In this document: positions 2,980 through 45,147 of the stretch, piece by piece | Position numbering within the stretch: the first letter of the stretch is position 1 | How the letters are laid out: each line of letters opens with the position of its first letter | Origin: a virus | Virus record (IMG/VR): IMGVR_UViG_3300041935_000006 | Location: 1-45,147 of that record | DNA: 45,147 bases | Direction: 5' to 3' (one strand) | Notes under the pieces: generated by a model | The model's input: only the letters and a program-made list of their open reading frames with translations | Database searches by the model: none | Told to the model about the DNA's origin: nothing | Translations under genes and position numbers: made by a program

Positions 2980-3020
2980 TTGCATGGCGTCACAACGCGG
3001 CGTTATAACGCCGCGTGGTG
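2980..3020 (+). promoter_or_regulatory. Promoter/operator, site 2 (TTGCAT-N17-TTATAA, leaderless geometry)
   Basis: TTGCAT at 2980-2985 and TTATAA at 3003-3008. The 30-bp near-perfect palindrome CACAACGCGGCGTTA|TAACGCCGCGTGGTG spans 2991-3020. The ORF start GTG 3015 is 7 nt after the -10. Confidence 0.6.
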
Positions 3021-3704
3021 AGTGCAGCGGCGCATAACGACAACGGGTCGATCTCGATCGACTGCGATGAGTGGATCTCCGACGAGCACGACAACCCGTC
3101 GTGCACGTGTGAGCCATGCGTGCGCGTGCGCTCGAGCGACGAGGCCGAGCGACGTCGACGCGAGGCTCTCACGTGCGGGGGGCTGTTCCCGCTCGCGCAC
3201 GTGTTGCTCGGTGAGGGGTGGGTCGACGAGGACGGCAAGGGGGGCAACGTGGTGGCGCAACCGAGACAAGATGCAGTCGACGTAAAGAGCTTGGCGCAAC
3301 GTGCGCTCGGCGATGTGTTTGAGCAGCTCGAGCGGGTCGGGAGCGCCGGCCGGGAGAAGTGCAGGCCGAGCTCGACGTACTACTCGGCGGCGACGCCCTA
3401 CCCGGCCGAGCACCGGATCAAGCGGCACGAGGCGGTCGAGCTCTTGCGCTGCGCCGAGAACGCTCTCGACTACGCACGGGTTCACCTCGACTACCTCGAG
3501 CGCGACGAGGTGCGGGTGCGCGGGGGGCGCGCCTCGTTGCAGGTCGAGCCCGGTGCGCGTGTGCTCGTCGCCGACGACGAGAACGCGAGCACATGGGCCG
3601 GCGTGCTCGTCGACCTCGGCGAGGGCGAGTCGTGCCGCGTGCGCGACGACGCCGGGCTACTGCACACGCTCGACGTGCGCGACCTGAGAGCGTTCGCCGT
3701 ATGA
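3015..3704 (+). CDS. Hypothetical protein (229 aa)
   Basis: The ORF has no internal Met. A GTG start at 3015 or 3018 lies inside the promoter palindrome. Its stop overlaps the next start as ATGA. Confidence 0.6.
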   Translation: MVSAAAHNDNGSISIDCDEWISDEHDNPSCTCEPCVRVRSSDEAERRRREALTCGGLFPLAHVLLGEGWVDEDGKGGNVVAQPRQDAVDVKSLAQRALGDVFEQLERVGSAGREKCRPSSTYYSAATPYPAEHRIKRHEAVELLRCAENALDYARVHLDYLERDEVRVRGGRASLQVEPGARVLVADDENASTWAGVLVDLGEGESCRVRDDAGLLHTLDVRDLRAFAV

Positions 3705-8516: not shown

Positions 8517-8875
8517 GGGATCGCCGTGAACTTGTGCCCGCGCACGTTTGCGAGCAACTCGTCGAGCTCGAGGCGGCGACGTTCCGACTCGGCCGAGTCG
8601 CGCTTGTGCAGGCAATCCCAACAGAGGCGCCGCACCTCGGTGTCGAGGATCGAGCCGACGACGGCACCGATCGTCCCTCGTTGCATGGCGTCGTGCTCGA
8701 GCTCGTGCCGCTCGAGCTGTTCGTACGTGCGCACCTTCGGCGGCACCGGGTGCGGCACGTAGCGACCGAGCTCGACCTCGACGCGCTCGAGCGCGGCGAG
8801 CAGATCGGCACGCGGTCGAGCCGGGCCGAGCGAGTGTTGACCGCACGAGGTGCACTTGCGAGCGGACCGCCTCAC
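8513..8875 (-). CDS. Hypothetical CxxC...CxxC protein (120 aa)
   Basis: GTG 8875 forms a GTGA overlap. Motifs CTSCGQH and CWDCLH. Confidence 0.5.
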   Translation of the reverse strand: MRRSARKCTSCGQHSLGPARPRADLLAALERVEVELGRYVPHPVPPKVRTYEQLERHELEHDAMQRGTIGAVVGSILDTEVRRLCWDCLHKRDSAESERRRLELDELLANVRGHKFTAIP

Positions 8876-9467: not shown

Positions 9468-9626
9468 GCGTGTTCCTATTGTACGGCGAAGTCGGGCGCG
9501 CGTGCCAAGCTGCAACGCGCACTGCACCCGGGAGGCGCGCGGCGACGGGGGGCCATCGCACGCACTCGAGCGGAGAATCGAAGCGGGATCGCGTCGACCT
9601 CCCGGGCCGCGGCGACAGTCGCATCG

Positions 9627-9675
9627 TGTGAACATGTAGTCAAGTGCACATGTTCACGTGTACACATGTCACCGC
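9627..9675. repeat. ACATGT-core repeat array A (three 16-bp units), candidate centromere/operator
   Basis: GTGAACATGTAGTCAA / GTGCACATGTTCACGT / GTACACATGTCACCGC. ACATGT cores sit at 9632, 9648 and 9664. GTGAACATGT (9628-9637) and ACATGTTCAC (9648-9657) are inverted. The array ends 20 nt before the parA ATG. Confidence 0.8.
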
Positions 9676-9694
9676 GTCGTGTAAGCCTGCGCGC

Positions 9695-10378
9695 ATGGCT
9701 GTTCGGATCTGTTTCGTCGGCGGCAAAGGGGGCCTCGGCAAGTCGACCCTCGCGATTTCGTGCGGGGTCGAGTGGCACCGTCGAGGTCGCCGCGTGCTCC
9801 TCGTCGACGTCGACGACGAGCAACTGTCGGCCGAGGAGTGGCACGACGACGCGCTCGAGCTCGAGCTCGACGCACCCCTCGTCGTGAGCATGGGTAACGA
9901 GGTGCGCACTCAGCTCGAGCCGGCCTCGGCCGCGTTCGAGATCGTGATCGTCGACACGGCCGGCCGCAACGGTCGGCGCTCGGCACACGTCATGGGACAG
10001 TGCGACCTTGCCGTGCTCCCGTGCGGGCCGAACCGGATCGAGCTGCGCCGACTCCCGAAAACGGTTGCGCAAGTGCGCGACGTGCAGGCGGTGCGGCCCA
10101 AGCTCGACGCCGCGATCCTCGTGACGCGCAAGCAACCAAACACGGTGATCGGGAGGCAGGCCCGGCGAGCGATTGAGGAATGCGACTTCCCGATCCTCGA
10201 CGTCGAGCTGTTCTATCGCATCACGTACGGCGAGGCGATCGCGGCCGGGCTCGGGCCGACCACGTACGACCCATCGAGTGACGCCGCACGCGAGGTCGGC
10301 GCACTCGTTGACGAGCTCGAGCGCCGGCTCGAGCTGCACACCACAACCAAACCAAAGAGGAAGCATGCCACCCGCTAA
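9695..10378 (+). CDS. parA: ParA-family partition ATPase (small, type Ib-like)
   Basis: Deviant Walker A CFVGGKGGLGKST, Walker A' LLVDVD and Walker B-like IVIVDTAG. 227 aa with no N-terminal HTH extension. Confidence 0.85.
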   Translation: MAVRICFVGGKGGLGKSTLAISCGVEWHRRGRRVLLVDVDDEQLSAEEWHDDALELELDAPLVVSMGNEVRTQLEPASAAFEIVIVDTAGRNGRRSAHVMGQCDLAVLPCGPNRIELRRLPKTVAQVRDVQAVRPKLDAAILVTRKQPNTVIGRQARRAIEECDFPILDVELFYRITYGEAIAAGLGPTTYDPSSDAAREVGALVDELERRLELHTTTKPKRKHATR

Positions 10379-10721
10379 ACCGACACCGACCGTGCGCTCG
10401 TCGACGCGCGCGAAAAAGCAACCGGCACCGCTCGAGGGCCGCGCGCTGCAACGCGAGCTCGACCGGATCGGCCGCAAACACGAGAGGCCGGCCGAGGGTG
10501 AGCACCCCGTCGCCGGCCGCGGGATCGTCAAGATGCCCGGCCGCGCCACCAAAGAGGGCCGCAAGGGTGAGCGCGTCACTCGTCGCGCGACGTTCTATCT
10601 CCCGCTCGAGGTGCACGACGAGCTCGAGGTCACCGCCAAGCGCCGCGGTATGTCGGTGAGCAACGCCGCGGCCGAGCTCCTCGCCGACGCGCTCGGTGTC
10701 ACGCTCGAGGCGACGGGATGA
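10365..10721 (+). CDS. Ribbon-helix-helix DNA-binding protein (ParG/omega-like candidate centromere binder)
   Basis: ATG 10365 follows AGAGGAAG and overlaps the parA end. A long basic N-terminal tail precedes the RHH pattern RATFYLPLEVHDELEVTAKRRGMSVSNAAAELLADAL. Confidence 0.65.
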   Translation: MPPAKPTPTVRSSTRAKKQPAPLEGRALQRELDRIGRKHERPAEGEHPVAGRGIVKMPGRATKEGRKGERVTRRATFYLPLEVHDELEVTAKRRGMSVSNAAAELLADALGVTLEATG

Positions 10722-11400: not shown

Positions 11401-11675
11401 ACCGCGCGCAGCGCCGAGCCGGCAAGATCCCGCACTCGTTCCGGGTGCGCACCGGGATCCACTACATGACCAACGGCACCTTCGTCGCGTTCGCGCGCAT
11501 CGATCGCGAGGACGGCTCGACGCAATGGTGGGAGTCGACGCCGTACACCGACGAGGCCGAGGCCGAGCGGCACCGCGACGAGCTCTCGACCGGCATCCGA
11601 GCGATCCTCGCAAAGCAGCAAACGAACCTCGCCGGACTGCGCGTGCACCCGGTGACGAAAGGCGGTGACGCGTGA
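11397..11675 (+). CDS. Hypothetical protein (92 aa)
   Basis: GTG 11397 forms a GTGA overlap and follows AAGGGAGGG. Confidence 0.5.
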   Translation: MNRAQRRAGKIPHSFRVRTGIHYMTNGTFVAFARIDREDGSTQWWESTPYTDEAEAERHRDELSTGIRAILAKQQTNLAGLRVHPVTKGGDA

Positions 11676-11719
11676 ACATGACGACAAGTGAACATGACGA
11701 CAAGTCAACACGTAACCAG
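11672..11719. repeat. ACATGT-family repeat array B (16-bp units x3)
   Basis: GTGAACATGACGACAA occurs twice exactly (11672-11687 and 11688-11703), followed by GTCAACACGTAACCAG. Cores ACATGA/ACAAGT/ACATGA/ACAAGT/ACACGT fall every 8 bp from 11676. Confidence 0.8.
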
Positions 11720-11941
11720 GCGTTGCCCGCGCAGTGCGTGCACGTCGCCGAGGGCGAGCTCGAGCACTTGCACACGCTCGAGCTCACCACCCGCACCGAG
11801 GCCGTGCAGCCCGATTACCGATACGTGATCAACGGCGATCGCATGCGTCTGTGCGCGTTCTGCACGGGCAAGGTGATCGGGATGCTATCGCGGTCGGAGT
11901 TCACCGGCGGTGCACTGCTCGCGCCCGAGGCCGAGCGGTGA
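11672..11941 (+). CDS. Hypothetical protein (89 aa)
   Basis: GTG 11672 (GTGA overlap) or ATG 11678/11694. The first 16 codons are the repeat array itself. There is a CAFC motif. Confidence 0.5.
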   Translation: MNMTTSEHDDKSTRNQALPAQCVHVAEGELEHLHTLELTTRTEAVQPDYRYVINGDRMRLCAFCTGKVIGMLSRSEFTGGALLAPEAER

Positions 11942-15001: not shown

Positions 15002-15328
15002 ATGCGCAAACAACACCCGTACGCCGGCCACTTCATCGCGTCGTTTGACTGCCTGTTTCGGCTGCACACCTCGGTCAACGGCCGCTTTCGGATCTCGACG
15101 GTCGGCGAGTGGCACCCGGATATCCCGCCGAACGTCGGCGAGCGCCGATACAAGCACCCCCCGCGCGAGATCGGGGTCGATCGCTTGTACGAAACGATGG
15201 TGTTCCCGCTCGGTGCCGACGGTGAGCCGGTGTCTTGGGAGGGCATCGATCATCGGTCGTACAACACGGCCGCCGAGGCCGAGGCCGGTCACGAGGAGCT
15301 CGTCAGCAAGTGGGAGGCGGCACCGTGA
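15002..15328 (+). CDS. Conserved hypothetical protein (108 aa, YETMVF motif)
   Basis: ATG 15002 lies 1 nt after the upstream stop. Confidence 0.6.
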   Translation: MRKQHPYAGHFIASFDCLFRLHTSVNGRFRISTVGEWHPDIPPNVGERRYKHPPREIGVDRLYETMVFPLGADGEPVSWEGIDHRSYNTAAEAEAGHEELVSKWEAAP

Positions 15329-15603
15329 AGCCACGCAAGAAGCACCCCAACACCGTGACGATCTACGGCCTCGCGCAGCTCGCGCTCGACACGTTCGGAG
15401 CGCTCACCGCGGCCGAGGTGCGTGCCCTGATCGCCGACGATCCCGAGGGCCTCGCGCCTCACGAGCGGTACGACCTCACCCTCTCGCGCGTCACGGCCGC
15501 GCTGCGCTCGATGGTGCTCGACCGCTCGGCCCTCTCGGTCACCGAGGACGGGATCGCGCGCTACAGGCTGCGATCGGCGTCACGTGTACATGTGAACATG
15601 TAG
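15325..15603 (+). CDS. Winged-helix-like small protein (92 aa)
   Basis: GTG 15325 forms a GTGA overlap and follows GGGAGG. Segment LTAAEVRALI...LTLSRVTAALRSMVLDRSALSVTEDGIARYRL. The last six codons (RVHVNM) are encoded by repeat array C. Confidence 0.55.
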   Translation: MKPRKKHPNTVTIYGLAQLALDTFGALTAAEVRALIADDPEGLAPHERYDLTLSRVTAALRSMVLDRSALSVTEDGIARYRLRSASRVHVNM

Positions 15604-15628
15604 ACATGTGAACATGTGAACATGTTCA
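15585..15628. repeat. ACATGT-core repeat array C (five contiguous 8-bp units)
   Basis: ACATGTGA ACATGTAG ACATGTGA ACATGTGA ACATGTTC with cores at 15588, 15596, 15604, 15612 and 15620. It ends in the perfect 12-bp palindrome TGAACATGTTCA (15617-15628). It contains the stop codons of both convergent genes. Confidence 0.85.
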
Positions 15629-16294
15629 TACGATGCCGACGGCCATGCCGTGTGCGTGGATCTTGCGCAGTAGATCGAGGCCCGGGTCGGGCTTGACCGG
15701 CGAGAAGTGCAAGTGTCCGGCCGGCCCTCGGAACGTTGCCGCGATGTGTGCCGGCAACACGGTCGGGAACACGTCGCCGTTGAGGATCGGCACGCGCATC
15801 GGGAGCGAGTAGGCCGAACAGAGCGCCGCGTTGAGCGCGATCACGCTCGCGATCTGCGCCGGGAAAAACTCGCCGTACTCGATCAGCCGACCATGGATCC
15901 GCTCGGTGCGCCGGGTACGGGTGAAACCCTTGTCGGGTGCCTTGCCGTGCCCGCGGTTGATGATCTCGATCCCGACGCCGTACGAGTTGCCGCCCCCGTC
16001 GGCGCAGTGCGCGCACCTCGCGTCGGCGTCGGCGCACTGATAGATCTCGCCGAGCTGATCGACGATGAAGTGCACCGAGAGAGCCTCGGGCTTGCCCGTG
16101 GTCGCGCTCTTGTGATCACGCATGAACTCGAACGCGCGATCGGCCGAGTTCTCGGCGGCCGTCCAATGATTGATGATCCATCGAGTCTCGTGCCGCATGC
16201 GCGTCAAGAAGTGCATGCCGGTCGACGTCCAGGGCCGCACCGGTGCGAGGCACCTGTACGACTGACCGCGCACGATGATCTCGCCGACGCTCAC
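15626..16294 (-). CDS. Endolysin, N-acetylmuramoyl-L-alanine amidase (Amidase_2/PGRP type)
   Basis: Motifs INHWTA, SVHFIVDQLGEIYQ and AHCADGGGNSYGVGIEIIN, as in T7-lysozyme-type amidases. GTGA overlap at 16294. Confidence 0.85.
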   Translation of the reverse strand: MSVGEIIVRGQSYRCLAPVRPWTSTGMHFLTRMRHETRWIINHWTAAENSADRAFEFMRDHKSATTGKPEALSVHFIVDQLGEIYQCADADARCAHCADGGGNSYGVGIEIINRGHGKAPDKGFTRTRRTERIHGRLIEYGEFFPAQIASVIALNAALCSAYSLPMRVPILNGDVFPTVLPAHIAATFRGPAGHLHFSPVKPDPGLDLLRKIHAHGMAVGIV

Positions 16295-19257: not shown

Positions 19258-19749
19258 TCAAGGCTCCTTACGGCTCGGCCTCTCGGCCGGTGTCTCACGA
19301 TCGAACGAGGGCACGGCGCTCGGCCGCGGTAAGGGTGCGTCGCCGGTGATCGACGGGTCCGGCATCGAGGGCCGCGGTTTGGGCACACCGGCGCCGAGCT
19401 CGGGCATCACGATCGGCTCGAAGTTGCCCGACTGACTCGAGCTCGTGCCGATCAGGGGTGCGCTCGAGGGCAAGAGCGGCGTCGCGAGCGGCGACGAGGG
19501 TCGGAGCGAACCGCGGATCTCGGCAAGCTGCACGTGTGCCGACTGCGCGTCGGCCCTCGCCGCTCGAGCTCGAGCGTTCGCGTCGGCGATCCCGGCGTCG
19601 GCCTTCGCCTCGACCTTACTGATCGCCTTTCGAGCTCGCCACCACCCGAGCGCGGCGACGGCGCCAAACATGAGGATCTCGGTTGCCGTCGGCCCGAGCG
19701 TCTCTTTCACCGAGGCGCAAAACGTGGTGCATGCATCGAGTACGATCAC
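19258..19749 (-). CDS. Membrane-anchored coiled-coil, Pro-rich protein (163 aa)
   Basis: GTG 19749 follows AAAGGGGG. It has one TM segment (ILMFGAVAALGWW), an Ala/Arg-rich helix and a Pro-rich tail. The architecture is i-spanin-like, but it sits in the fibre region. Confidence 0.5.
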   Translation of the reverse strand: MIVLDACTTFCASVKETLGPTATEILMFGAVAALGWWRARKAISKVEAKADAGIADANARARAARADAQSAHVQLAEIRGSLRPSSPLATPLLPSSAPLIGTSSSQSGNFEPIVMPELGAGVPKPRPSMPDPSITGDAPLPRPSAVPSFDRETPAERPSRKEP

Positions 19750-31689: not shown

Positions 31690-32177
31690 CGCGAACCCCC
31701 ACGGTTGCGATCCTCGTTGCGACCGCGTGCGAGCTGCACGTCGTAACCGACGTATGGCGATGCTTCGGAGTAGCTGCGCGTGCCGCCGTACAGCACCGCG
31801 CTCGATGACTGATCGCTCGGCGCGAGGTCGATCAGACTGAGTTGACCGTCGGCCGCCTCTTTGACCTCGCCCTCGGCCTTTTCAGCGTCGGCGGTGACGA
31901 GCGCGATCTGTGCGTCGCTCGCCGGGATGCCGTGTTGCAGGTACGCGCGCAGCGTAACCATACGCGCGACCCACCCCTTGACGACGTCGGACACCGGCTC
32001 ACTAAGCGGCACCTTGATCCGCTTGGCGAGTCGCATGTCGATCCAACCCGACGACGACGCGAATTGCGAGTCGAGCCACCCGGGGGCGAGCTGCGCCTCG
32101 ATGCGATCGATCTGTGCCCAAGGCATGATCGTGCGCATCTTGAATTCGGCGATCGTCAGATATTTCGACACGTGCAC
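31686..32177 (-). CDS. Head-tail connector protein (Mu gp36/DUF1320-like)
   Basis: The N-terminus YLTIAEFK...I...QIDRIE resembles DUF1320 starts. It lies directly after the major capsid gene. Confidence 0.5.
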   Translation of the reverse strand: MHVSKYLTIAEFKMRTIMPWAQIDRIEAQLAPGWLDSQFASSSGWIDMRLAKRIKVPLSEPVSDVVKGWVARMVTLRAYLQHGIPASDAQIALVTADAEKAEGEVKEAADGQLSLIDLAPSDQSSSAVLYGGTRSYSEASPYVGYDVQLARGRNEDRNRGGSR

Positions 32178-32208
32178 CCTTAGTCGTGTGAGTGAGCCGC
32201 GCGCGCGA

Positions 32209-36949: not shown

Positions 36950-37177
36950 CTAGCGAGTGCGTGCAGACTCTTGACGTTTGACGTTTGCAGACTGATCCCA
37001 CGTCGCCGCCGCGATCCCGACGTGCCTCTCGAGCATTGCGCGCGCTCTTTTGCTCGGTTTCCACGTGCCCGAGCTCCAATGCGACACGGCCCCTTGCGAT
37101 ACGTGCGCGCGCAACGCGACCTCGCGCGCGCGGATACGTTGCAACACGCACAGTAAGAGTCGGCGGCCCTCGGTCAC
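36950..37177 (-). CDS. Small XRE-type HTH protein wedged between terminase and portal
   Basis: GTG 37177 forms a GTGA overlap with the terminase stop. HTH segment VALRAHVSQGAVSHWSSGTWKPS. Confidence 0.6.
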   Translation of the reverse strand: MTEGRRLLLCVLQRIRAREVALRAHVSQGAVSHWSSGTWKPSKRARAMLERHVGIAAATWDQSANVKRQESARTR

Positions 37178-38853
37178 CGCTTTTCCCAGATCGCCGCACC
37201 GGCGTACGGGTCGAACGGATCGCGCGCGTTGCGGGTCTGATAGTCAGACTGCACGACGCTATCGGTTGAGGTGCTCTCGCGTAGTGAGAGCGGCTCCCAT
37301 GCTGACAGTGCGAGCGCGTCGAGCCGATCGGGTGAGCGGCCGAGGATCTTGCGCAGCGTCTCTTTCGCCGTGACCTTGAGTTTGCCGTCGGCGCGTTGAT
37401 GCCACTCGGGCGCGTGCAGCTCTTTCGCAAGTTTGGTGTCCTCGGGAATCGCACCCCCGGCGTCGAACCAGGCCGAGAGCGAGGCGGCGAGAGCGTCGCG
37501 CATCAAGTGGTAGATCTCGGGTTGCCGCAAGCTCTTGTCGCTCGAGCTGATCCCGACGACCTCGAACGAGCCCTCGTTGTCGTCGGCGTAGTTGCGCAGT
37601 GCGGTGTACACCTTCGAGCCGATCGAGCCGCCGCGGTCGACGACGACGACGGGTGTCTCGCGCGGTGTCTTGAGGCGCGCGATCAGCTGCACCACTTCGA
37701 GCAAGTGCCCGGCCGCGTCGAGCCCGCGACGCACGACGAGCTCGAGCAACTTGAGCCCGCGGCGAGGCGCAAACACGATGTCATCGCCCGAGCCCTTCTC
37801 ACCCGCGGGATCCACGCCGATGTACAAGCGGCCCGACGCCGGTGCCTCGCTCCATCGCTCCTCGGCTTGCGCGATGGTGTGCAGCGAGAAGATCTTGCCG
37901 GCCTCGTGCTCGGCAAACTCGCCGAGGACACGCACCTTGTACAGGGCCGACTTGACCCCCCACTCCTCGGCCTTTTCCTCGACCCACTCGCGCGTCGCGA
38001 GGCCCGGGATCAAGCGCTTGCCGCTCACTACGTTCGGCGTCGACGCGCTCGAGACCGTCAGGCAGAAGTAGAAGCGGGCCTTGCTATTGAACGCGTCGTA
38101 AAACTCGCCGTCGTTCTTTGTGGGGTTGCCGAACAGCGCGACGCGCGCCGAGCCAGCACGGTTGCCCTCGATCGCCTCGTAGATCTCGCGCGCGACGCCG
38201 CTCGCCTCGTCGACGATGTACAGAACGTTTTCGCCGCTGATACCCGCGACCGCCTCGGCCTGTTTCGCGGTGAACCCGACGATCTCGCGAAACGACTGAT
38301 CGTCTGACTTGAGGCCGGTGCGTGCGAGCTCGCCGAGGTCGCCGTCGATTAGCGACGAGTGAGGGCACGGCCGCGTGATGCGCGCGTTCGGGTTGCGGAT
38401 CAGCTCGGCCTTGCACTCGATGCACCGACCAGAGCGCGCGTGCATCATGCGCAGCTCGCGCCACAAGATCTCGTCGACCTGCCTCGACGTCGTGCTCGTC
38501 ATGACGACGCGGGCCGCGTCGAAGCTGCAATAAAACCAGAGAGCGAGGAGCGCGGCCGAGGCCGACTTGCCGATCTTGTGCCCGGATTTCACGGCGACGC
38601 GCATGTGGTCGCGTACACCCTCGAGAATCGCGATCTGTGCCGACCACGGGTCGACGCCTGCGATCTCGCGAGCGAACCGCACCGGCTCCTCGCGGTACAT
38701 CGGGCTCGGGAACGTGACGCCGAACGACGCGTGCAGCGCGGGAAAGAACGACGCCGCGAAGTCGCCGGCATACGTGAGCGGCCCCCCGACAAACTTGAGG
38801 GGCCGGCCGGGCCTACGCTTCGCTATCTCGCTCGAGGCGGTGCTCGTCGCCAT
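37174..38853 (-). CDS. terL: Terminase large subunit
   Basis: Walker A VKSGHKIGKSA and Walker B VLYIVDEAS, with a C-terminal RNase-H-like nuclease region (IGVDPAG...). 559 aa. Confidence 0.9.
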   Translation of the reverse strand: MATSTASSEIAKRRPGRPLKFVGGPLTYAGDFAASFFPALHASFGVTFPSPMYREEPVRFAREIAGVDPWSAQIAILEGVRDHMRVAVKSGHKIGKSASAALLALWFYCSFDAARVVMTSTTSRQVDEILWRELRMMHARSGRCIECKAELIRNPNARITRPCPHSSLIDGDLGELARTGLKSDDQSFREIVGFTAKQAEAVAGISGENVLYIVDEASGVAREIYEAIEGNRAGSARVALFGNPTKNDGEFYDAFNSKARFYFCLTVSSASTPNVVSGKRLIPGLATREWVEEKAEEWGVKSALYKVRVLGEFAEHEAGKIFSLHTIAQAEERWSEAPASGRLYIGVDPAGEKGSGDDIVFAPRRGLKLLELVVRRGLDAAGHLLEVVQLIARLKTPRETPVVVVDRGGSIGSKVYTALRNYADDNEGSFEVVGISSSDKSLRQPEIYHLMRDALAASLSAWFDAGGAIPEDTKLAKELHAPEWHQRADGKLKVTAKETLRKILGRSPDRLDALALSAWEPLSLRESTSTDSVVQSDYQTRNARDPFDPYAGAAIWEKR

Positions 38854-38868
38854 TCACCCGGGACACTC

Positions 38869-39234
38869 CTAACGCGCGCGTGCGCCGGACAGTACCTGAG
38901 GGATCAGCTCGCTCGCCGCGTCGACGTGGTGTCGGAGCGAGCGGTATGCCGCGACGAGGCGCCGCACTTGATCGGGTGTCCATCCTCGCGAGAACGCGTC
39001 GAGGGCCTCGTCGGTGAGGCACTCGAGCTCGAGGCCGTACAAGATCGAGCCGACGAGCTCGGTGTTACGCGCGCGGTGTGTGGCGAACGCGGCGGCGAGC
39101 GTCGCCGCGAGGTCGGGGTGCTCGTCCTCGGGCTTGGCGCCGTCGAGGATCGCGAGCATGGCGAGCTTTGCGTACTGTCGGCCGAGCTCGACCTCGACCT
39201 CGTTCGGGGTGCCAACCGTCACGAGATACCCCAC
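38869..39234 (-). CDS. Hypothetical protein (117-121 aa)
   Basis: GTG 39234, or GTG 39222 as a GTGA overlap with the upstream stop. Confidence 0.5.
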   Translation of the reverse strand: MGYLVTVGTPNEVEVELGRQYAKLAMLAILDGAKPEDEHPDLAATLAAAFATHRARNTELVGSILYGLELECLTDEALDAFSRGWTPDQVRRLVAAYRSLRHHVDAASELIPQVLSGARAR

Positions 39235-39479
39235 CCGCGCATCGAGCTCTTGATCGTGCGGATCTGCCTCCCGGCCTCGGCGACTTGAGCGCGCGCGTTG
39301 CCGAGCTTGCGCGACTCGGCCGGCGAGCGGATCCGTACGTTGAGCTCGCGCAGCGCCGTCAGTATGGGGGCCGTCGAGACTTTGAACGCCTCGGCGAGCT
39401 CGACGATCGTCTCGCCCTTGCGGTAGCGACTTGCCACCTGATCGCGCTGATCCTCGGTCAAAACACGCTTACCACTCAT
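39219..39479 (-). CDS. HTH DNA-binding protein, first gene after repeat array D (small-terminase-like or regulator)
   Basis: ATG 39479 follows AAAGGAA. HTH segment GETIVELAEAFKVSTAPILTALRE. Confidence 0.6.
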   Translation of the reverse strand: MSGKRVLTEDQRDQVASRYRKGETIVELAEAFKVSTAPILTALRELNVRIRSPAESRKLGNARAQVAEAGRQIRTIKSSMRGWGIS

Positions 39480-39500
39480 GGGGGCCGGTTCCTTTCACGG

Positions 39501-39540
39501 TGACATGTTCACATGTGTACACGTGCACATGTACACGTTA
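39501..39540. repeat. ACATGT-core repeat array D (8-bp units)
   Basis: ACATGTTC ACATGTGT ACACGTGC ACATGTAC with cores at 39503, 39511, 39519 (ACACGT) and 39527. It lies between the stop of 39538..40260 and the start of 39219..39479. Confidence 0.8.
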
Positions 39541-40260
39541 CTCGGCGTCGCCGTCCTCGCCGAGGATTCGTTGCACCGCTGCCTCGACGTCGCGCGCGGC
39601 GGCCGGGTGCGGCAAGAGGGCCTCGATAATCGCTTTCTTGAGGCGTTGCCACTTCGGGTGATCGCGGATCGTGCGGTCCTCGAGCATCTCGCGGTCGCGC
39701 TCGAGCCTCGTTTTTTGCGTGAGGGCTCGCGAAAAGGCGTCGGTGAGCTGCGCGCGCTCGCGGGGGGTGAGCTTGCCGTTTTTCAGCTGCGTTCGCAGGA
39801 GCTTGATCAGGCGTTCGTAGTCGCGCAGCGCCGAGGCCGTGCCCTCGAGCTCCTCGTCGTCGGTGTCGTCGTCGAGCTCGAGCTCGGGCTCGGGTTCCTC
39901 GGCCGCACCCCATGCCGAGAACGGGATGCCAAAGTGGCTCGCGAGCGCGCGGCGGTACCGATCGTCGGGCACATACAGGCCGTCTCGCCACTGCGCGATC
40001 GATTGCTTGCTCGCGCCGACCGCCTTGCCGATCTGAGAGAGCGAGCCGGGCACGTCGAGCAACATGCGTTGCCCCTCGGAACGGATCGGTTTCGCCGGTG
40101 CGCGCAGCGGTTCGGGTGCCGGCGCCGGCTCGTCGTCGAGCTCCTCGTCGTCGAGCTCGTCGGCCTCGAGGTCGGGCTCGGCGCTTGACGCTCTTGACGT
40201 CGACGCGCGCGCGCTTGACACACGCGCTTTCGGGCTCGATTTCGTTGCGGTTTTACTCAT
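39538..40260 (-). CDS. HTH-domain protein with acidic flanks and coiled-coil C-terminus (regulator or small terminase candidate)
   Basis: HTH segment LSQIGKAVGASKQSIAQWRDG. An AT-rich promoter-like stretch lies upstream (40275-40300). Confidence 0.6.
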   Translation of the reverse strand: MSKTATKSSPKARVSSARASTSRASSAEPDLEADELDDEELDDEPAPAPEPLRAPAKPIRSEGQRMLLDVPGSLSQIGKAVGASKQSIAQWRDGLYVPDDRYRRALASHFGIPFSAWGAAEEPEPELELDDDTDDEELEGTASALRDYERLIKLLRTQLKNGKLTPRERAQLTDAFSRALTQKTRLERDREMLEDRTIRDHPKWQRLKKAIIEALLPHPAAARDVEAAVQRILGEDGDAE

Positions 40261-40353
40261 GGTTGACGGTCAAGGTGCATTTTACAGATATTTACTCCCG
40301 CACCACGCACACGAGGCCCCCCGGCCTTGGCCCCCCAATAGACTGTCATGCCC

Positions 40354-40974
40354 CTACCTCAATGATTGCGCATGCTTGGCCCAACATTCGGGGTGGTAGT
40401 TGGCACCCTCGCCGAGGCCGGGCTCGTCACACACGCGGCACCGCTTCCGACGTTTCGCACGCGCAGCCATGATCGATGCCTGGTACTCCTCGGAGGCCCA
40501 TGCCTTTCGCATCGCACACGATCGACACAGAACTGTCGCCTCGCACGGTGAGCGCTTCGGACTGAGCACGGCAGCGCACTCCGCGCACGACCGCGCTTTG
40601 TGCGCCTGCACGAGCGACTCGCTTGCGATTGGCTCGCGCGGTTTCACCGCAACGCTATTGAGGTTCGCTGCAACGTATCCGTGCAGTGCGGCGAGCTCGG
40701 CGAGAGACGCATTGCTCTTGAGCGTGTTTGCTCGACTCGAGATCACGGCGACGTTCCCGCGCACATACCCGAGCTCGGGAACGATGCGATCGAGCGTCGC
40801 CGAGTTGTCAGAGAACGGCCCGGCCTCGAGTTTGAGTGCAACGCCGAGGACCGGGCAACGCTCGGGCACTACCACGTCGGTTGATTGTAGGTCGAATGGC
40901 ACCCCCCGTGCGCGCGCACGCTTACGCGCTAGCGACACGAGACGTTGAGCGATCAACTCGCGATAACGGTTCAT
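40354..40974 (-). CDS. HNH / endonuclease VII-type nuclease with C-terminal zinc ribbons
   Basis: CPVLGVAL......SATLDRIVPELGYVRGNVAVISSRANTLKSN matches the endonuclease-VII-like HNH pattern. The C-terminus carries CAEC...CRSC and CRVC...HPEC. Confidence 0.75.
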   Translation of the reverse strand: MNRYRELIAQRLVSLARKRARARGVPFDLQSTDVVVPERCPVLGVALKLEAGPFSDNSATLDRIVPELGYVRGNVAVISSRANTLKSNASLAELAALHGYVAANLNSVAVKPREPIASESLVQAHKARSCAECAAVLSPKRSPCEATVLCRSCAMRKAWASEEYQASIMAARAKRRKRCRVCDEPGLGEGANYHPECWAKHAQSLR

Positions 40975-41002
40975 GTAGGGGGTGGCCGTCACGACACGCG
41001 GG

Positions 41003-43306: not shown

Positions 43307-43429
43307 GGTCCCTACCCTACGCAGCACAGGTCCAGAGGTCCCTCTCCCTAAAGGAGAGAGGGACCTCAGGGACCTCTGTGCGGGTCCAGGTCCGGGACCT
43401 CGATGGACCTCGATGGACCTCGCGGACCT
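43307..43429. repeat. GGACCT/AGGTCC iteron array with long inverted repeat (candidate replication origin)
   Basis: AGGTCC at 43328, 43336 and 43388. GGACCT at 43361, 43370, 43395, 43405, 43415 and 43424. Variants at 43307 and 43382. The last four are spaced 10, 10 and 9 bp apart. The hairpin 43335-43346/43356-43367 has 12 contiguous bp. Confidence 0.8.
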
Positions 43430-43470
43430 CGGCGAATCGCTTGCACCGGGTGACAAACAGCCATGCATCC

Positions 43471-45039
43471 TCATGACGGCACTCCCGGTTGAGCAACCCG
43501 ATAGACCCCGTCGACGCGCACGAGCACCCCCTCTTCGACGAGCTCGCGGGTGATCGAGTTGCCGTCGCGCTTGCGCATGCCGGCGCCGCGAATGATGGCG
43601 GCGAGCGTGCGGCACTCCTCACGCGCGCACGCGGCGAGGGCTCGCTCGCGCAGCTGCGTTGACTTGGCTCGCTCGCGGTCGACGTCGTCATGCTCGGGCT
43701 TCTCGATCTCGCGCCAAGAGAGCGACGAGAAGTCGAGCCGCGTGCGGATCTCGGGTTTGGCACTGCCGAGGCGGTTTTTCGCGACCTCGAGATCGACGAC
43801 GCCGACCTCGCCGGTGACCGAGCGCAACCCGATCAGCAAGTGCGCGGCGTACTCGATAGCCCGCGACTCGGCGCCGGCACCGAGCGCGCTGATATCCTGA
43901 TCGCGCTTGCCCGTGCGATACCCCGCGCGGCTCATCTCCGAAATCGCGACGACGAGCGTGCCGCGGCGGCAAATGCGCTTGATCACCCGCACCGTCGCTT
44001 CGATCTGCTCGCGGGTGGTCTCGTACTGCAACGCCTCGCGACACGGCACGGTTTGGATCGAGTCCACGAACATCACGCGCGGCCGGTCGCCTGCGCCCTC
44101 GAGCAAGAGCCGCTCGGCATCCTCGAGAAACAGCTCGTCGTCGTACGGGTCGATCACGACGATCGCGCGAGCTCGGGAGCTGCGCGCGAAGGTCTCACGT
44201 CGACCGGGGTCGACACCCTCGAGCGCCTCGCGGTCGTGCCCGTCGAGCTGACCGAGCCGCGTGACAATCGCCTCGCGCGACTCGTCGGCCGCGAGGAATG
44301 CAACCGCGCACCCGGCCCGCTCCCATCCATCGGCGAGCCATGCGCACAGATTCGTCTTACTCGCACCCGGCGCACCGAGCAGTGCGACAAAGCGGCCGAG
44401 AGGCAGACCCCCACGCGTCGCCGCGTCGAGCGCCGGCAACCCGGTCGGCAAACGCGTGCCGACGGCGCCGAGTGCGAGTGCGAGCTCAGAGAGCGTCGGG
44501 ATGCGCGCGACAGACTCGTCACGGTCGACGGCCTCAAGGGCTGCGCGCGCACCATCGAGCGCGGCGAGGTACCGCGGGAGCTCGTCACTCCCGGCCTTGC
44601 CGGCGACGAGCGCGGCGGCATCGTGCACCGCGCGTCGACGAGCGAGCCGGCGCAATCGACGCGTGTCGGTCTGATCGCTCGGCATGGTCTCGGTGACCGC
44701 GAGCAAATACTCATCGCCGCCGACGGCACCGAGCCGACCCGCGTCGTGCAGCGCGTCGTGCAACGCGGCCGTGTCGTGAGGTTTGCCCTCCGACGCGAGC
44801 TTGCACAGAACCGCGAAGATCTGGCCGTTCGAGTGCGAGTAAAAGTCGTCGGGCACGACCTTTGACGCGAGCGCGAACCCGGGCAAGAGCATCGCCGCGC
44901 ACAACACCGCGCGCTCGAGCACGAGGTCGTGCAGCTCGAGCCGATCCTCGTGCCGCAAGCTCGCCGCTCGGCCGTTGCTTGGCGTCGGTTTCACGGCCCG
45001 CACCGGCCCCCCACTCGTGTTTGATGATTCAGCACGCAC
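43471..45039 (-). CDS. DnaB-family replicative helicase with winged-helix-like C-terminal extension
   Basis: DnaB N-domain pattern ERAVLCAAMLLP...DFYSHSNGQIFAVL. Walker A LLGAPGASKT and Walker B VMFVDS. The C-terminal 70 aa (RTLAAIIRGAGMRKRDGNSITRELVEEGVLVRVDGVYRV) look like a wHTH. The GTG start at 45039 is uncertain. Confidence 0.8.
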   Translation of the reverse strand: MRAESSNTSGGPVRAVKPTPSNGRAASLRHEDRLELHDLVLERAVLCAAMLLPGFALASKVVPDDFYSHSNGQIFAVLCKLASEGKPHDTAALHDALHDAGRLGAVGGDEYLLAVTETMPSDQTDTRRLRRLARRRAVHDAAALVAGKAGSDELPRYLAALDGARAALEAVDRDESVARIPTLSELALALGAVGTRLPTGLPALDAATRGGLPLGRFVALLGAPGASKTNLCAWLADGWERAGCAVAFLAADESREAIVTRLGQLDGHDREALEGVDPGRRETFARSSRARAIVVIDPYDDELFLEDAERLLLEGAGDRPRVMFVDSIQTVPCREALQYETTREQIEATVRVIKRICRRGTLVVAISEMSRAGYRTGKRDQDISALGAGAESRAIEYAAHLLIGLRSVTGEVGVVDLEVAKNRLGSAKPEIRTRLDFSSLSWREIEKPEHDDVDRERAKSTQLRERALAACAREECRTLAAIIRGAGMRKRDGNSITRELVEEGVLVRVDGVYRVAQPGVPS

Positions 45040-45147
45040 AACCCCCCGCGCGCGCTGTTAGTGAGAGCTCTTCACGTCTGCATCGTCGTCGTCGTCGTCA
45101 CTATCGTCGTCGTCGTCACCCGGGCCGACCGGGTTCGGGTCGAACAG
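45021..45147. repeat. Terminal direct repeat, right copy (identical to 1..127)
   Basis: See the left copy. Exact 127-bp identity. Confidence 0.95.

Follow-up and report, generated by a model that had tools for sequence, protein, structure and literature searches.

Why does an array of 8-bp repeats lie between two genes of a phage packaging module, and which protein binds it? The array, designated array D, is located in the window, which is the whole stretch of 45,147 nucleotides analyzed here. Three further arrays of the same kind are present elsewhere in the window, one of them directly ahead of a parA gene. Based on sequence comparison, array D is probably one of four dispersed centromere-like binding arrays for the element's own type Ib ribbon-helix-helix (RHH) partition protein.

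The element and its likely host

Bases 1-127 of the window are identical to bases 45021-45147. This perfect 127-bp terminal duplication indicates that the window is a circularly closed contig and represents a complete element of 45,020 bp. The G+C content of the window is 66.6%. The late genes are on the minus strand and encode a large terminase, a Mu-type portal, an S49 prohead protease, a gpT-like major head protein, tail proteins, and an amidase endolysin. Further genes encode a DnaB-like helicase, exonucleases, a DNA methylase, and a Cro/CI-like HTH protein. No integrase is found among the ORFs scanned. Since it carries a type Ib partition architecture on a phage, the element is a putative phage-plasmid.

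A megablast search with 20 kb of the window against the GenBank phage collection gives no match. One TerL relative is found in an Anaeromyxobacteraceae MAG and another in a "delta proteobacterium" MAG, and the closest plasmid ParA proteins are from Myxococcota, namely those of Sandaracinus pSa001 and Myxococcus pMF1. These affiliations suggest that the hosts of this phage family are likely Myxococcota.

Array D and its three counterparts

On the plus strand, positions 39503-39534 read ACATGTTC ACATGTGT ACACGTGC ACATGTAC. This core of array D comprises four good ACAYGT boxes with an exact 8-bp period. A half-degenerate unit is present on either side of the core, TCACGGTG at 39495 and ACGTTACT at 39535, and the latter runs into the TAA (39538-40) that terminates the 240-aa gene. 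The ATG of the 86-aa gene is at 39479, and the AGGA ribosome-binding site of this gene is ~16 nt from the end of array D. The original prediction of an 8-bp repeat array at 39501-39540 is thus correct in sequence, position, and gene coordinates.

The arrays stand out clearly from background. With at most one mismatch, ACAYGTNNACAYGT has 21 matches in the window, compared with 0.34 expected from dinucleotide shuffles, and 11 of the 14 occurrences of ACATGT in the window are inside arrays. A four-unit score of at least 19 out of 24 is reached at exactly four places, which are arrays A, B, C, and D (Table 1). Arrays A, B, and C, which had been predicted along with array D, are therefore all present. 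For comparison, the maximum score in 30 random Markov-1 sequences is 15-18. In a looser scan, for ACnnGT with 8-bp periodicity, 20 random sequences contain zero clusters; TRF also picks up array D. A borderline stretch located between the major head gene and the one that follows (32160-32189) was considered as a fifth ACAYGT-like array. Its score of 18 out of 24 equals the random maximum and it is not kept in relatives, so it is probably a chance occurrence.

Table 1 Features of the window discussed in the text.
Feature	Position	Strand	Description
Array A	9624-9677		Six to seven units; presumed par operator and centromere
parA	9695-10378	+	227 aa; deviant Walker A motif GGKGGLGKST; without N-terminal HTH, as in type Ib
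ParG/ParB-like RHH protein	10365-10721	+	118 aa; overlaps the parA stop; presumed binder of the four arrays
Array B	11668-11721		Degenerate, 16-bp super-period; before the gene starting near 11738
Array C	15572-15633		Best array, five perfect ACATGT boxes
Amidase endolysin	15626-16294	-
Large terminase subunit	37174-38853	-
121-aa protein	38869-39234	-	Function unassigned; conserved upstream of terL in this subfamily
86-aa HTH gene	39219-39479	-	Immediately downstream of array D; accessory
Array D	39495-39540		Occupies the 58-bp gap from the 240-aa stop to the 86-aa start
240-aa Cro/C1-type HTH protein	39538-40260	-	Helical C-terminal domain
Conserved non-coding element	40261-40353	-	Upstream of the 240-aa (terS-like) gene
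HNH endonuclease (PHROG 3322)	40354-40992	-	Adjoins the terS-like gene

The other arrays differ in their surroundings. Array A is in a divergent intergenic region and ends ~25 nt ahead of the parA ATG, with no ORF between the two. Array B, whose narrower delimitation is 11668-11715, fills the gap behind a block consisting of parA, the RHH gene, and three small genes. Array C, which is 15580-15633 when delimited more narrowly, is positioned where the rightward early genes meet the leftward late and lysis genes, and has no gene start downstream. It overlaps the 3' ends of the gene at 15310-15603 (plus strand) and of the amidase gene (minus strand), and is therefore partly coding. The RNA of array C folds unusually well (z-score of -3.8) and could double as a bidirectional terminator-like hairpin.

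The partition operon and the RHH protein

ParA matches the Pfam families CbiA, AAA_31, MipZ, and VirC1 above threshold. The 118-aa protein encoded after parA has an N-terminal half that is basic and probably flexible, and a C-terminal RHH region whose strand reads RRATFYLPL. It matches Pfam RHH_5 with an E value of 1.1e-4 and 22.3 bits, below the 26-bit cut-off. In addition, it has a PHROG Arc-like match (0.003) and PDB profile matches to the RHH proteins ORF56 (0.033) and CdbA. In an AF2 model of low confidence (pLDDT of 54), a strand (residues 71-80) is followed by two helices (residues 81-94 and 98-110). The profile signals are weak or sub-threshold but concordant, consistent with assignment of the protein as a predicted RHH protein.

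Together, the small ParA, the RHH protein, and the adjacent repeat array identify the operon as a predicted type Ib partition system. A repeat array ahead of parA is also present in six relatives. A ParA search of IMG/VR retrieves no relative, and a tblastn search of PLSDB with the RHH protein gives no match.

The unit of the arrays is a palindromic hexamer within an 8-bp repeat. RHH dimers are two-fold symmetric, and the met-boxes bound by MetJ are likewise 8-bp palindromes in tandem. We propose that each 8-bp unit would take up one RHH dimer, whose β ribbon would read the palindromic ACAYGT box, and that cooperative binding of neighboring dimers would coat four to six units. The coated array would then recruit and stimulate ParA and thereby help to segregate the plasmid prophage. 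From the sequence comparisons described below, it is likely that the RHH protein binds the arrays, and the arrays probably have centromere activity.

Retention of the arrays in relatives

The closest relative of the RHH protein (87% identical) is encoded on L015, a 23-kb soil-metagenome contig, on which arrays A, B, and C are retained in synteny. L017, a contig from the same sample with a TerL that is 91% identical, covers the D position. Here, ACATGTAC ACTTGTGA ACACGTCA ACACGATA extends from the stop of the 240-aa homologue to the start of the 86-aa homologue. In L015 and L017, the unit sequences and copy numbers have turned over relative to the window, but both the box and its 8-bp phasing persist. 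The original prediction would have been contradicted had close relatives of like gene order lacked the array; in L017, the array is present.

Searches with ParA and TerL reveal a wider family of ~42-46-kb contigs (ParA 46-57% and TerL 70-76% identical), of which four were examined on both sides and others on one side. More than 100 TerL relatives reach an identity of 56% or higher. An array at site D is kept in five of the six lineages where both the junction and the genome's own motif can be examined. In the exception, contig 43067 (L030), there is neither a gap nor an array after the terS-like gene, and the flanking genes overlap, indicating that site D is dispensable. The sequence of L039 is without the terS region and hence carries no information on site D. 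TerL relatives at 44-64% identity (L001-L004, L018-L026, L040, and L041) contain no arrays.

A further relative, L038, has a 55-bp gap at site D (8631-8685) with five GTNAC-like units (GTCAC, GTTAG, GTAAC, GTAAC, and GTGAC). These units are spaced by roughly 8 bp, with a one-base phase slip, and may be a further variant of the motif.

Concerted variation of the boxes and the RHH strand

The box differs between genomes (ACATGT, ACAAGT, ACCGGT, and ACACCT are found), and the variant is common to all arrays within a genome. Contig 44166 has ACAAGT/ACTTGT boxes at A, directly after the RHH stop (the second array starts 6 bp past this stop), and at D. Contig 44799 has ACAAGT/ACCGGT boxes at A, B, and C, which are the positions examined in this contig. 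Contig 43440 has ACACCT/ACGTGT(CT) boxes at A, C, and D, and contig 43166/42226 has ACAAGT/ACAAGG boxes at A and C and in a short array at D. Contig 43067 has only a weak array, at A. Expressed in canonical hexamers, the similarity of arrays is 0.42 within genomes and 0.17 between genomes. None of 5000 label permutations reaches the observed difference, in a test that is approximate in that the window and its close relative are left out of the observed between-genome set only.

The β strand of the RHH protein differs among genomes as well (RRATFYLP, RRLTVYLP, RRLAVYIP, RRLTLFLP, and RRTTLYLP), and is identical in the two genomes with the ACATGT variant. The box variant thus changes along with the RHH strand, in a comparison of only six genomes. 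Such concerted evolution within each genome points to the RHH protein encoded after parA as the presumed binder. The original prediction of four dispersed sites for one binder tied to partition is in accordance with these data: all four positions keep an array in the close relatives L015 and L017, and in more distant relatives the variants change in concert.

Could the arrays be bound by another protein, such as the 86-aa HTH protein in autoregulation, a prophage repressor, or a host factor? In four genomes, the 86-aa HTH gene indeed comes after the array. However, the 86-aa HTH protein is only 43-49% identical between genomes and is not detected in several relatives; in particular, no homologue is detected in the examined parts of contigs 44166 and 44799, which bear arrays. 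The window and L032 resemble each other in the putative recognition helix of this protein although their motifs differ; the window and L017 differ in it although their motif is common. As for a prophage repressor, the separate TAACGCCGCGTTA repeats that flank the Cro/CI-like gene (2130-2618) are distinct from the ACAYGT arrays and are probably the immunity operators. A host factor would leave the genome-specific variants unexplained. Binding by any of these proteins is therefore very unlikely. That the motif and the RHH strand change in concert, a pattern that the 86-aa HTH protein does not follow, argues for a single fast-evolving binder tied to par, namely the RHH protein.

Packaging genes around array D

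The original prediction placed array D on the boundary between early and late genes. This boundary is unclear, because the 240-aa HTH gene is a conserved immediate neighbor of terL. In distant relatives (TerL 44-64% identical), its homologue is directly upstream of terL or overlaps it. The 240-aa gene thus more likely belongs to the packaging unit and is not obviously an early gene; its product may be a small terminase or a late regulator. Within the par-bearing subfamily, the content of the interval from the 240-aa gene to terL varies: it can hold the array and the 86-aa HTH gene, a gene for a secreted-looking protein, a zinc-finger ORF, and the conserved 121-aa gene. The 86-aa gene, the 121-aa gene, and array D look like material lodged between the 240-aa gene and terL.

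In L031 (804-1355) and L038 (8686-9210), a gene for a 174-183-aa protein with a signal-peptide-like N-terminus replaces the 86-aa HTH gene as the first gene past site D. This gene looks like a moron placed right behind the array.

The location of array D within the packaging gene cluster raises the alternative, noted in the original prediction, that terminase recognizes it as a pac or cos site; small terminases often bind short repeats near their own genes. However, the same repeats also precede parA and recur at two further positions. The motif varies among relatives whose TerL proteins are 70-76% identical and whose terS-like proteins are 42-51% identical, and it tracks the par array instead. 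In addition, L030 and L040 share the terminase genes but lack the array. A better candidate for a cos site, or for a late promoter, is the conserved non-coding element upstream of the terS-like gene. It comprises ACAGT..GGGGG..CCAAGGCCGGGGGGC, followed by GTAAA..TGTAAA..TTGAC right ahead of the start codon. Counterparts are found in L017 (1-55), L030 (8440-8536), L032 (8380-8453), and L038 (7810-7907), so that the element persists in relatives even where protein identity has dropped to ~45-50%. Recognition of array D by terminase is thus disfavored and highly improbable.

The HNH endonuclease gene beside the terS-like gene might suggest an HK97-type cos system. No homologue is found in any of the relatives examined, and the gene, being unique to the window, probably represents a mobile insertion and not an accessory of the terminase.

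Array D could also act as RNA, forming an intergenic hairpin that serves as a terminator or attenuator. Its palindromic boxes can pair, and the array of the window folds at -23 kcal/mol. However, the z-scores of four orthologous segments are -1.6, +0.4, -1.5, and -0.9, with no common structure and no U-tract, and such a function is extremely improbable. Searches for Rfam families and tRNAs give no matches.

Comparison with known partition systems

The assignment of array D to the RHH partition protein can be compared with systems in which binding has been characterized. The plasmid pMF1 of Myxococcus fulvus encodes a 75-aa type Ib ParB that binds six dispersed iterons, ItA-ItF, with the 8-bp unit AGATGTCT; binding at all six sites has been shown experimentally, and ParB autorepresses the par genes (PMC3235114). 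The iterons are upstream of, downstream of, and away from the par operon, even inside ORFs (PMC3235114). We verified the 8-bp period of the ItA and ItB arrays in record L036.

As in the window, pMF1 has a small ParA (35% identical) followed by a small centromere-binding protein of type Ib, and the host is probably of the same phylum. The unit is likewise 8 bp with a near-palindromic core, AGATGT-CT in pMF1 and ACATGT-NN here. Arrays are located on both sides of par, as are A and B, and additional arrays are located elsewhere, as are C and D. In contrast to the phage described here, pMF1 is an 18.6-kb plasmid with a third gene, parC, upstream of parA; no homologue of ParC is found in the window or its relatives (tblastn E >=1). 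Moreover, the sites of pMF1 cluster between the replication region and par, whereas one of the sites here is ~15 kb off, in the packaging module. The similarity of the RHH domain to the C-terminus of pMF1 ParB is marginal (hhalign E value of 2.3e-4, probability of 44%), with no tblastn match.

In Sandaracinus amylolyticus pSa001 (L037), ~30 tandem 8-bp units of CACRRGCT are positioned directly upstream of parA (1236-1460). A 130-aa RHH-like gene follows, a design shared with pMF1 and the window that is apparently not annotated.

The ParF-ParG-parH/OF system of TP228 also combines a small ParA with an RHH protein that has a flexible N-terminal tail, and with degenerate short boxes at an 8-bp period. 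One ParG dimer binds each 4-bp box, the boxes are separated by 4-bp spacers, and the arrays are coated cooperatively (PMC3130281). ParG both binds the centromere and represses the operator. Unlike the boxes here, that of TP228 is a non-palindromic 4-bp ACTC with AT-rich spacers, and all 20 boxes are in one block upstream of parFG, with no dispersed sites described. No sequence similarity to the TP228 system is detected.

In the delta/omega system of pSM19035, an RHH ParB also binds several separate arrays. Its six parS heptad arrays extend over promoters that belong to different operons, which ties partition to global regulation. [quoted passage not shown] In contrast to the arrays here, the heptad is 7 bp and non-palindromic, the plasmid is from Firmicutes, and the targets are copy control and toxin-antitoxin genes rather than phage genes.

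Dispersed centromere sites are also found in a phage-plasmid, N15, which has four inverted-repeat sites scattered over its genome. N15 differs in that partition is of type Ia and the ParB (SopB) is a large HTH protein, each site is a single 16-bp inverted repeat and not an array, and the genome is linear.

Possible effects on late-gene transcription

Does array D, in addition to serving as a partition site, control the genes that follow it? Array D is flush against the ribosome-binding site of the next gene, as array A is at parA, from which we infer repression at D. In several genomes, the distance from the end of arrays A, B, and D to a start codon is 0-30 nt, which is the known geometry of type Ib operators. 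Autorepression is the rule for type Ib systems. Occupancy of array D would probably also lower transcription that starts at or enters the 86-aa gene, terL, and the head genes during the plasmid state. The coupling of partition-protein occupancy to late-gene expression suggested in the original prediction fits this geometry, and on this basis we tentatively consider an effect of array D on late-gene transcription possible. Ravin, Rech and Lane are said to have reported in 2008 that the N15 Sop system facilitates late gene expression; the effect reported for N15 is positive, whereas repression would apply here.

A scan for sigma-70-like promoters finds none at any array, nor upstream of parA, where a promoter must exist. 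The scan is therefore uninformative for this host.

Array D could instead be only an extra centromere, bound by the RHH protein with no transcriptional effect and located where intergenic repeats are tolerated. Array C is at a convergent gene end, with no downstream gene and no expected promoter, and the iterons of pMF1 are found even within ORFs, indicating that arrays need not regulate anything. In addition, site D is absent in one relative, and the gap after the terS-like gene exists only with the array, so that abutting the ribosome-binding site is unavoidable. Arrays A, B, and D, however, have the geometry of known type Ib operators, and RHH partition proteins are documented repressors. 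A purely centromeric role is thus rather unlikely.

A bolder proposal concerns arrays D and C as a pair. They bracket the ~24-kb packaging-to-lysis string (39479 to 15626, all on the minus strand) and might keep this late block silent, acting as roadblocks or bridging into a loop during plasmid inheritance; arrays A and B would enclose the par block likewise. We consider this proposal distinctly unlikely. If true, the partition protein would be a second, immunity-independent lysogeny lock, and its loss or titration would free the late genes.

Returning to array D as one of four probable binding arrays of the RHH protein, both a type Ib RHH protein with dispersed iterons (pMF1 and pSM19035) and scattered centromeres on a phage-plasmid (N15) are already known. 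Apparently new is the combination, in which a probable Myxococcota phage-plasmid family keeps an array in its packaging module and the arrays evolve in concert with the RHH strand. A full-text literature search finds nothing that joins phage-plasmid, ribbon-helix-helix, centromere, and late genes. The dispersed RHH iteron design is thereby extended to a previously undescribed family, probably of Myxococcota. If array D controls the late genes as well, plasmid maintenance and the lytic program would be connected through the partition protein, a link that N15 hints at with a completely different type of ParB. The family further provides a natural specificity series, with five RHH strand variants and five box variants, for reading and re-engineering RHH-DNA recognition.

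Other repeats in the window and in viral contigs

An exact-pattern scan of IMG/VR for three ACATGT boxes retrieves only unrelated low-GC contigs. In the AT-rich intergenic DNA of such unrelated low-GC viral contigs, AACATGTR arrays with an 8-bp period are found at L008 2821-2850 and L013 541-570, and at L007 8359 and L009 9009. These arrays may serve as RHH operators in other phages.

A doubled 13-bp unit (ATAACGCCGCGTT) is present in the window in two copies of inverted orientation (1915-1946 and 2991-3022), which flank the Cro/CI-like HTH gene together with a small gene and probably serve as immunity operators. L028 has similar units at 15155-15184, at 16163-16190, and a short way ahead of its array A, as does L029 at 2032-2062.

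The DnaB-like helicase gene is followed by a 412-bp gap, in which 10-bp direct repeats of GGACCTCGAT are present in 3.8 copies (43395-43431). The relative L028 has four copies of the 10-bp direct repeat AGGTTCCCGG downstream of its DnaB-like helicase gene (19470-19509). The repeats at this position are a candidate iteron set of the replication origin.
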